Source: Escherichia coli (GTDB lineage: Bacteria > Pseudomonadota > Gammaproteobacteria > Enterobacterales > Enterobacteriaceae). Taken from it: DNA of 64,000 bases. The translations under genes were made by a program, and so were the position numbers. Of this stretch, positions 10,301-10,383 are shown in pieces; the stretch's first letter is position 1; the number at the start of each line of letters is the position of its first letter. The stretch lies in assembly GCF_013122565.1 (NCBI RefSeq), contig NZ_CP053258.1; one strand, 5' to 3'. The notes under the pieces are model-generated. The model was given only the letters and a program-made list of their open reading frames with translations, was not told the origin of the DNA and did not search any database.

Positions 10301-10383
10301 GTAGGCCTGATAAGACGCGGACAGCGTCGCATCAGGCATCTTGTGCAAATGTCGGATGCGGCGTGAACGCCTTATCCGACCTA
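10301..10383. repeat. REP elements (BIME-like pair) between yacG and mutT
   Basis: Two palindromic units: gtaggcctgataagacgcgg...cgcatcaggc (10301..10340) and gtcggatgcggcgtgaacgccttatccgacctac (10351..10383). Confidence 0.8.

Follow-up and report, generated by a model that had tools for sequence, protein, structure and literature searches.

An empty REP between yacG and mutT that matches the target guide of a resident IS621 variant in Escherichia coli

Studies have shown that IS621 is guided to its target by a bridge RNA (Durrant et al. 2024, PMC11208160; Hiraizumi et al. 2024, PMC11208158), and its insertion in the REP elements of E. coli was reported by Choi et al. 2003, as cited in PMC11208158. 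The IS621 target consists of 11 bp, namely 7 left-target bases, the CT core and 2 right-target bases (Durrant et al. 2024, PMC11208160), and is read by a 9-nt left target guide (LTG) and a 4-nt right target guide (RTG), each including the core (PMC11208160; PMC11208158). The pairing can be extended by three bases when the flank matches, a 7-nt extended RTG can raise specificity in engineered bridge RNAs, and the requirement for the RTG has already been probed by mismatch screens (PMC11208160). The wild-type loop encodes ATCGGGCCTAC, and the main natural target is ATCAGGCCTAC (PMC11208160). ISPpu9 and ISPpu10 of Pseudomonas putida are IS110-family elements that likewise home to the REPs of their host (PMC12288879; bioRxiv 10.64898/2026.03.19.712850); as far as these sources describe them, they are set apart by host, REP family and bridge-RNA architecture.

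In this study, we analysed a 64-kb stretch of E. coli DNA (64,000 nucleotides, hereafter the window), in which an IS621 variant interrupts a REP between thiQ and yabI and a second copy of this REP, between yacG and mutT, is empty. We believe that the empty copy is an ordinary Y-type REP, that it would be a legitimate target, since it matches the resident bridge RNA at 11 of 11 positions, and that it is empty because insertion is rare rather than because of its flank; we put the probability of this whole explanation at about 90%. The element has been described before, and its guide variant and REP targets, with the thiQ-yabI site of the window among them, are listed in the supplementary data of Durrant et al. 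2024 (PMC11208160). The observation holds, but it is an ordinary one.

The resident IS621 variant and its guides

The element between thiQ and yabI (Table 1) has the 1279 bp of the published IS621. Its ends, TGTATTATCC... and ...ACAGTATCT, are those of the published donor ACAGTATCTTGTAT (ACAGTAT-CT-TGTAT), the CT core flanks the insertion, and the right flank reads ACGGGTAG. The recombinase is identical at 323 of 326 residues (99%), over its full length, to the IS621 transposase in PDB 8WT6 chain A (E 1e-218), and the bridge RNA is identical to the published wild type at 171 of 177 positions. Judged by the sequences of its recombinase, bridge RNA and donor ends, the element is IS621. There are 25 differences from canonical IS621 in 1279 bp, spread over the element, and 1–2 differences from other copies of the same variant. 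No complete RefSeq E. coli genome matched window positions 50684-52962 at more than 98.5%, and the best match was strain C9.

Table 1. Positions in the window of the two REP sites, their neighbouring genes and the parts of the IS621 variant
Feature	Position	Strand	Description
yacG	10084-10281	+	stop at 10281
Z-type REP, partner in the same pair (BIME)	10291-10340	-	empty in the window
Y-type REP	10351-10384	+	hairpin GTCGGAT...ATCCGAC at 10351-10380, then tail CTAC; uninterrupted
Perfect 11-bp target of the IS621 variant, ATCCGAC-CT-AC	10374-10384	+	left target 10374-10380, core CT 10381-10382, right target AC 10383-10384
17-nt tandem duplicate of the REP tail	10388-10404	+	CTTATCTGACCTACAGA, compared with CTTATCCGACCTACAGA at 10371-10387
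mutT	10398-10787	-	convergent with yacG; stop at 10398
Left part of the IS-interrupted REP, thiQ-yabI	51152-51183	+	ends with left target ATCCGAC 51175-51181 and core CT 51182-51183
IS621 target-guide variant	51184-52462	+	1279 bp, one copy of the CT core counted
Bridge RNA gene (predicted)	51198-51374	+	177 nt, upstream of the recombinase gene
LTG	51247-51255	+	ATCCGACCT
RTG extension positions	51271-51273	+	GCG
RTG	51274-51277	+	GTAG
Handshake guide	51278-51279	+	AT
IS621 recombinase gene	51375-52355	+	326 aa, intact ORF
Right flank of the occupied target	52463-52467	+	right target AC 52463-52464, then GGG (t12-t14)

To decode the guides, we aligned the element with the 177-nt bridge RNA sequence tabulated in the published work and numbered the positions as in PMC11208158, where 74-76 are the optional RTG extension. 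The six differences fall at RNA positions 53 and 55, inside the 9-nt LTG (50-58), and at 73-76, directly 5' of the 4-nt RTG (77-80), where UUGC is changed to CGCG. The handshake guide (81-82) and the donor-binding loop are the same as in the published RNA. The predicted fold has a 5' stem-loop and two loop-bearing stems (-63.7 kcal/mol, z -3.6). A scan of the IS region with Rfam gave no bridge-RNA family and only sub-threshold matches to the REP model naRNA4. The LTG ATCCGACCU (RNA; also written AUCCGACCU) and the RTG GUAG together encode the target ATCCGACCTAC; for the extension (G74 C75 G76), the pairing bases would be CGC. In contrast, the published loop, which encodes ATCGGGCCTAC, is mostly used on ATCAGGCCTAC in Z-type REPs; the target encoded by the window copy belongs to a subtype of Y-type REPs. 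In both cases the 7 + CT + 2 target lies in the 3' arm and tail of the REP, and many matching REPs are empty.

The recombinase of the window retains R246, like the crystallised protein, and most copies of the variant carry R246I, five residues past the catalytic S241. The I246 allele is widespread, being listed in 473 blocks of the protein collection, and is presumably functional. The exact recombinase sequence of the window had no record in the protein look-up.

The REP pair between yacG and mutT

The 32-nt sequence GTCGGATGCGGCGTGAACGCCTTATCCGACCT has exactly two copies in the window, at 10351-10382 and 51152-51183, both on the plus strand, and 0 copies are expected in shuffled sequence. The initial annotation had reported this identity, and an exact repeat search of the window confirmed it. 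It had also noted a 9-nt stretch matching the guide, and indeed ATCCGACCT recurs in the LTG of the bridge RNA. Direct reading of the sequence likewise agreed that the first copy is uninterrupted and that the second is interrupted by the IS, since it adjoins the left end of the 1279-bp insertion. The annotation placed the divergence of the two sites immediately to the right of the core, which is two bases too far to the left. We rebuilt the empty thiQ-yabI site (51151-51183 joined to 52463...) and compared it with 10350-10384; the two were identical over 35 nt, that is, 34 nt rightwards from 10351 and 1 nt to the left. The AC after the CT core is common to both sites, which first differ three bases beyond the core (AGA versus GGG).

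This correction changes what the pair of sites can tell us. Against the LTG at RNA positions 50-58, ATCCGACCT at 10374-10382 matches at 9 of 9 positions including the core, and CTAC at 10381-10384 is complementary to GUAG at RNA 77-80 at 4 of 4 positions. The occupied thiQ-yabI site (ATCCGACCTAC-GGG) and the empty yacG-mutT site (ATCCGACCTAC-AGA) therefore both match the 11-bp target at 11 of 11 positions, and both match the extension at 1 of 3, by the middle base alone. They differ only at t12-t14 within the range of the guide and its extension. The two shared bases AC are those read by the 4-nt RTG, so the sites are equivalent to the guide, and the proposal that they form a natural test of the right-side guide was not upheld. 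We believe that t12-t14 are not read by the guide of this element. The insertion point at the yacG-mutT Y-type REP is predicted to lie after 10382, and this is the only uninterrupted ATCCGACCTAC in the window. With 11 of 11 guide positions matched and the recombinase and bridge RNA variant encoded 41 kb away, the site is a plausible candidate target for recombination, as the annotation had proposed.

Apart from this match, the yacG-mutT locus is a usual one. The spacer between the convergent genes is 116 bp and holds the REP copy outside genes. The hairpin at 10351-10380, folded as single-strand DNA, has a predicted energy of -10 kcal/mol (z -3.1), which is the imperfect palindrome expected of a REP. 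The Z-type REP at approximately 10305-10340 is inverted relative to the Y-type REP and forms the expected hairpin in the predicted fold. On its minus strand, 10301-10311 reads ATCAGGCCTAC, the canonical natural target of IS621. The Rfam model naRNA4 (RF02564), which was built on one E. coli REP pair, matched 10304-10381 over its full length with 78.4 bits (gathering score 59.5), and by this curated model the Y-type REP is paired in a BIME with an inverted second REP. Like other REP/BIME elements of E. coli, the locus has an extragenic imperfect palindrome of about 35 nt with the conserved CCTAC tail, a head-to-head second REP, and an array of variable number between convergent genes; nothing in the window copy is distinctive. 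The element at 10351-10384 is an ordinary member of a Y-type REP subfamily with the stem GTCGGAT/ATCCGAC, in a BIME with a Z-type REP. This stem carries a compensated T/A pair compared with GCCGGAT/ATCCGGC, which defines the subtype addressed by the IS variant.

Near-identical copies of the 35-mer, counted as places with an exact word of at least 28 nt of it, were found in 5,425 of 5,426 complete E. coli genomes, with a median of 9 per genome (range 1–20). Two identical copies within 64 kb are thus unremarkable for a REP family.

The number of REP units at yacG-mutT varies among genomes, with one unit in the window, C9 and OkiPb01695, two in K-12, where the flank reads ACAAAAA, and in ET201, and three in PT62. 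In the window, 17 nt of the REP tail are also duplicated in tandem, which creates a one-mismatch near-target, ATCTGACCTAC, at 10391-10401. This duplicate was not seen in K-12, ET201, PT62, C9 or OkiPb01695, which have other array forms, and the exact yacG-mutT form of the window was absent from all 5,426 complete E. coli genomes. Tandem duplications beside the target core occur in both kinds of one-unit array, as two copies of CTTATCYGACCTACAGA in the window and two copies of CTACAGA (7 nt) in C9 and OkiPb01695. Slippage is the likely source of these duplications.

Other IS621-type targets in the window are empty as well. ATCAGGCCTAC is found at 52479-52489 (minus strand), in the partner REP of the occupied thiQ-yabI pair, and two further targets lie at 57864-57898, namely ATCAGGCCTAC at 57864 (plus strand) and ATCCGGCCTAC at 57888 (minus strand).

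Occupancy of the site and of its relatives

The variant was detected with a 71-nt query confined to the target loop, which has no 28-nt word in common with canonical IS621 and detects only this isoform and its close relatives. It was found in 29 of 5,426 complete E. coli genomes, in 72 copies (median 1 per genome, maximum ten). IS copies are far fewer than matching REPs. Occupancy was counted with right-junction chimeric queries, made of the right end of the IS and a unique gene flank; for the Y-type REP at yacG-mutT this was the mutT-side flank, with a coverage cut-off of 80%. The left-junction query was unusable for counts, because the REP pair and the left end of the IS are generic and 1,013 genomes reached at least 80% coverage.

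At yacG-mutT, the right-junction query passed the cut-off in two genomes only, PT62 and LP5-1, which have the same record length and coordinates and were counted as one event. Direct reading of PT62 showed the variant inserted in a three-unit yacG-mutT array, as ...CAAATGTCGGATGCGGCGTGAACGCCTTATCCGAC-CT-[IS]-CT-ACAAAAACAAATTT. The occupied REP copy is identical to the 32 nt of 10351-10382 followed by AC, and its right flank, ACAAAAA, is of a third kind. Two identical copies stand in tandem there, and the IS is in the second; the one before it, which by its left context is the positional counterpart of 10351-10384, is empty. In the survey that the annotation had called for, a REP copy identical to that of the window is used by the variant at this locus, and the one-unit form with the ACAGAC flank was never found occupied. 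No contiguous right-junction match for the occupied one-unit form (flank ACAGAC...) was present in the 5,426 complete genomes, and the predicted occupied junction GGCCATAACAGTATCTACAGAC gave 0 matches in metagenome contigs and GTDB species genomes.

These results raise the question of whether the local context disfavours the site, either by selection against insertion or by occlusion of the REP by proteins or by its own structure. In the one-unit array, the core lies 16 nt beyond the stop codon of mutT, between convergent genes, 0 genomes have an insertion in this form, and the sole Y-type REP insertion at the locus is in a three-unit array, farther from mutT. However, insertions in this spacer are tolerated, because canonical IS621 was found in the partner Z-type REP (target ATCAGGC-CT-AC, 10301-10311, minus strand), next to yacG, in 181 of 5,426 complete E. 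coli genomes, and the Y-type REP itself is occupied in PT62. The 181 were counted with a right-junction query as contiguous 200-nt matches, the best matches listed having 99.5–100% identity, and they include O26 and O103 strains. The sequence of one of them, ws5-3, was read, and canonical IS621, with the guide ATCGGGCC...UUGC-GUAG, lies exactly at the predicted point of the Z-type REP, with the Y-type REP beside it empty. In addition, C9 is the only genome identified that combines the one-unit form with the variant IS, and since so few genomes do so, the absence of an occupied one-unit form carries little weight. We consider a disfavoured context very unlikely.

The REP pair between yacG and mutT is a common landing place of IS621, in which each isoform takes the half named by its 11-base address. 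It shows the published bridge-RNA rule at work in nature on a single REP pair, with the Z half entered under the canonical guide in 181 genomes and the Y half entered under the reprogrammed guide in PT62 and LP5-1.

The reading of the annotation would put the empty state down to the right flank, in that ACAGA, unlike the ACGGG of the occupied site, would not pair with the right-side guide. In its favour, t12 and t14 do differ between the sites, and lengthening the RTG to 7 nt can make engineered bridge RNAs more specific (PMC11208160). Against it, the RTG GUAG pairs with CTAC, which is present at both sites, and the extension GCG wants CGC, of which both sites offer the middle base alone. The natural insertions point in the same direction. 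The PT62 recombinase allele, which is one residue off (R246I), was used in place of the window protein and led to ten loci encoding it, with 7–8 further distinct insertion sites. All of these read ATCCGAC-CT-AC, and the bases after AC are GGT, GTG, AGG or AAA. In Supplementary Data 2 of Durrant et al. 2024 (PMC11208160), the bin TBL_ATCCGACCTAC holds 35 natural targets, of which 32 are exact 11-mers. Its t12-t14 bases are AAA (6 targets), GGT (5), GGG (5), GAA (4), AGA (1) and others. In this bin, seq10 is the reconstructed thiQ-yabI site of the window, base for base, and seq7 has the flank ACAGA at a different locus. The flanks occupied in nature thus include ACAGA, ACAAA, ACAGG, ACGGT and ACGTG, and the isoform of strain 2018-05-2CC, with the same LTG and the canonical UUGC extension, also sits in a ATCCGACCTAC site. 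A flank effect therefore appears highly improbable to us.

Judged from these sequences, the flank past AC has no visible part in the choice of site. The annotation had stated that insertions found equally at both kinds of REP would make the right-flank difference irrelevant, and the varied t12-t14 of the occupied sites bear this out, but they are silent on the need for the RTG. On the need for AC, the natural sites give no information, since nearly every REP tail provides this dinucleotide. We also considered whether the 73-76 change (UUGC to CGCG) retunes the extended RTG. This idea was rejected: 0 of the 35 natural sites in the bin match CGC at two or more of the three positions, t12 is never C among them, and the isoforms mix LTG and 73-76 states.

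Scarcely credible is the idea that the site was formerly occupied and the IS excised precisely, with the 17-nt tandem duplication as a by-product: scar-free excision would leave no trace, and short duplications do stand beside the core in two array forms (17 nt in the window, 7 nt in C9 and OkiPb01695), but there is no positive pointer to it, the duplications lack the CT-bounded structure expected of an IS junction, and slippage at the hairpin repeat is a simpler source. In the IS110 family, elements leave as circles and the target is made whole again, which is why a scar would not be expected.

We therefore return to the explanation by rare insertion. In this reading, transposition is rare and matching REPs outnumber IS copies, and this, rather than the right flank, would account for the empty site. 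The variant carriers C9 and ET201, which have 4 and 8 matches to the variant guide region, respectively, both keep a perfect but empty ATCCGACCTAC at yacG-mutT, with the flanks ACAGAC and ACAAAA. The thiQ-yabI site holds the IS in six genomes. We infer that the window copy is usable at a rate similar to that of other perfect sites and is empty only because insertion is rare. For the annotation of E. coli genomes, an empty REP that matches the guide of a resident IS621 is the default and no sign of an extra targeting requirement; beyond such bookkeeping, the importance of the observation is little.

Isoform diversity and the origin of the variant guide

Canonical IS621, with the guide ATCGGGCC, is present in strains ZH177 and NN5 in the same thiQ-yabI REP that holds the variant in the window (equivalent of 51152-52467). 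This copy does not differ from that of UPEC245 (100% identity), and its guide is mismatched to ATCCGACCTAC at two positions (t4 and t6). This implies that the thiQ-yabI REP received independent insertions by two isoforms, or that one copy was replaced by the other.

We speculated that gene conversion after an off-target insertion could rewrite the LTG to match the new site and so create isoforms like this one. The flanking left target plus core (e.g., TATCCGACCT) and the LTG segment 72 bp inside the element would serve as short direct repeats for such an event. The mismatched canonical copies of ZH177 and NN5 are compatible with this, as are the fact that the two repeats have recombined at least once, in a 72-bp deletion that fused a REP to the guide, and the independent assortment of guide segments among isoforms. 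However, 19 further positions also separate the variant from canonical IS621, and gene conversion leaves the 73-76 change unexplained. Ordinary point mutation and selection suffice to account for the variant guide, and we regard guide rewriting as quite unlikely. The more specific proposal that the IS of the window is a recent convertant of the ZH177 canonical copy was rejected, since the 25 differences are spread over the element.

Several isoforms have mosaic target loops. For example, N3 and CFS3292 carry the LTG ATCCGGCC with CGCG at 73-76, and the N3 isoform is inserted in a ATCAGGCCTAC site. The 2018-05-2CC isoform combines the LTG ATCCGACC with the canonical UUGC. The left end of the CFS3292 element adjoins non-REP DNA (...CCAGTAAAT|TGTATT), and its right end was not found. 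The relative in EC596 is more diverged, and the sequence of its 5' stem-loop differs.

A truncated variant was observed at an arsC-side REP, where the flank TTATCCGACCT is fused to the sequence that follows the LTG (TGGGTTCTAACC...). Between the target copy in the flank and the identical LTG-coding copy inside the element, 72 bp are deleted, and with them the left end of the element and the 5' part of the bridge RNA. The truncated form also occurs in LHM10-1, VE-T9, XJ5.2 and CP52E, apparently at one locus, which would suggest a single inherited event.
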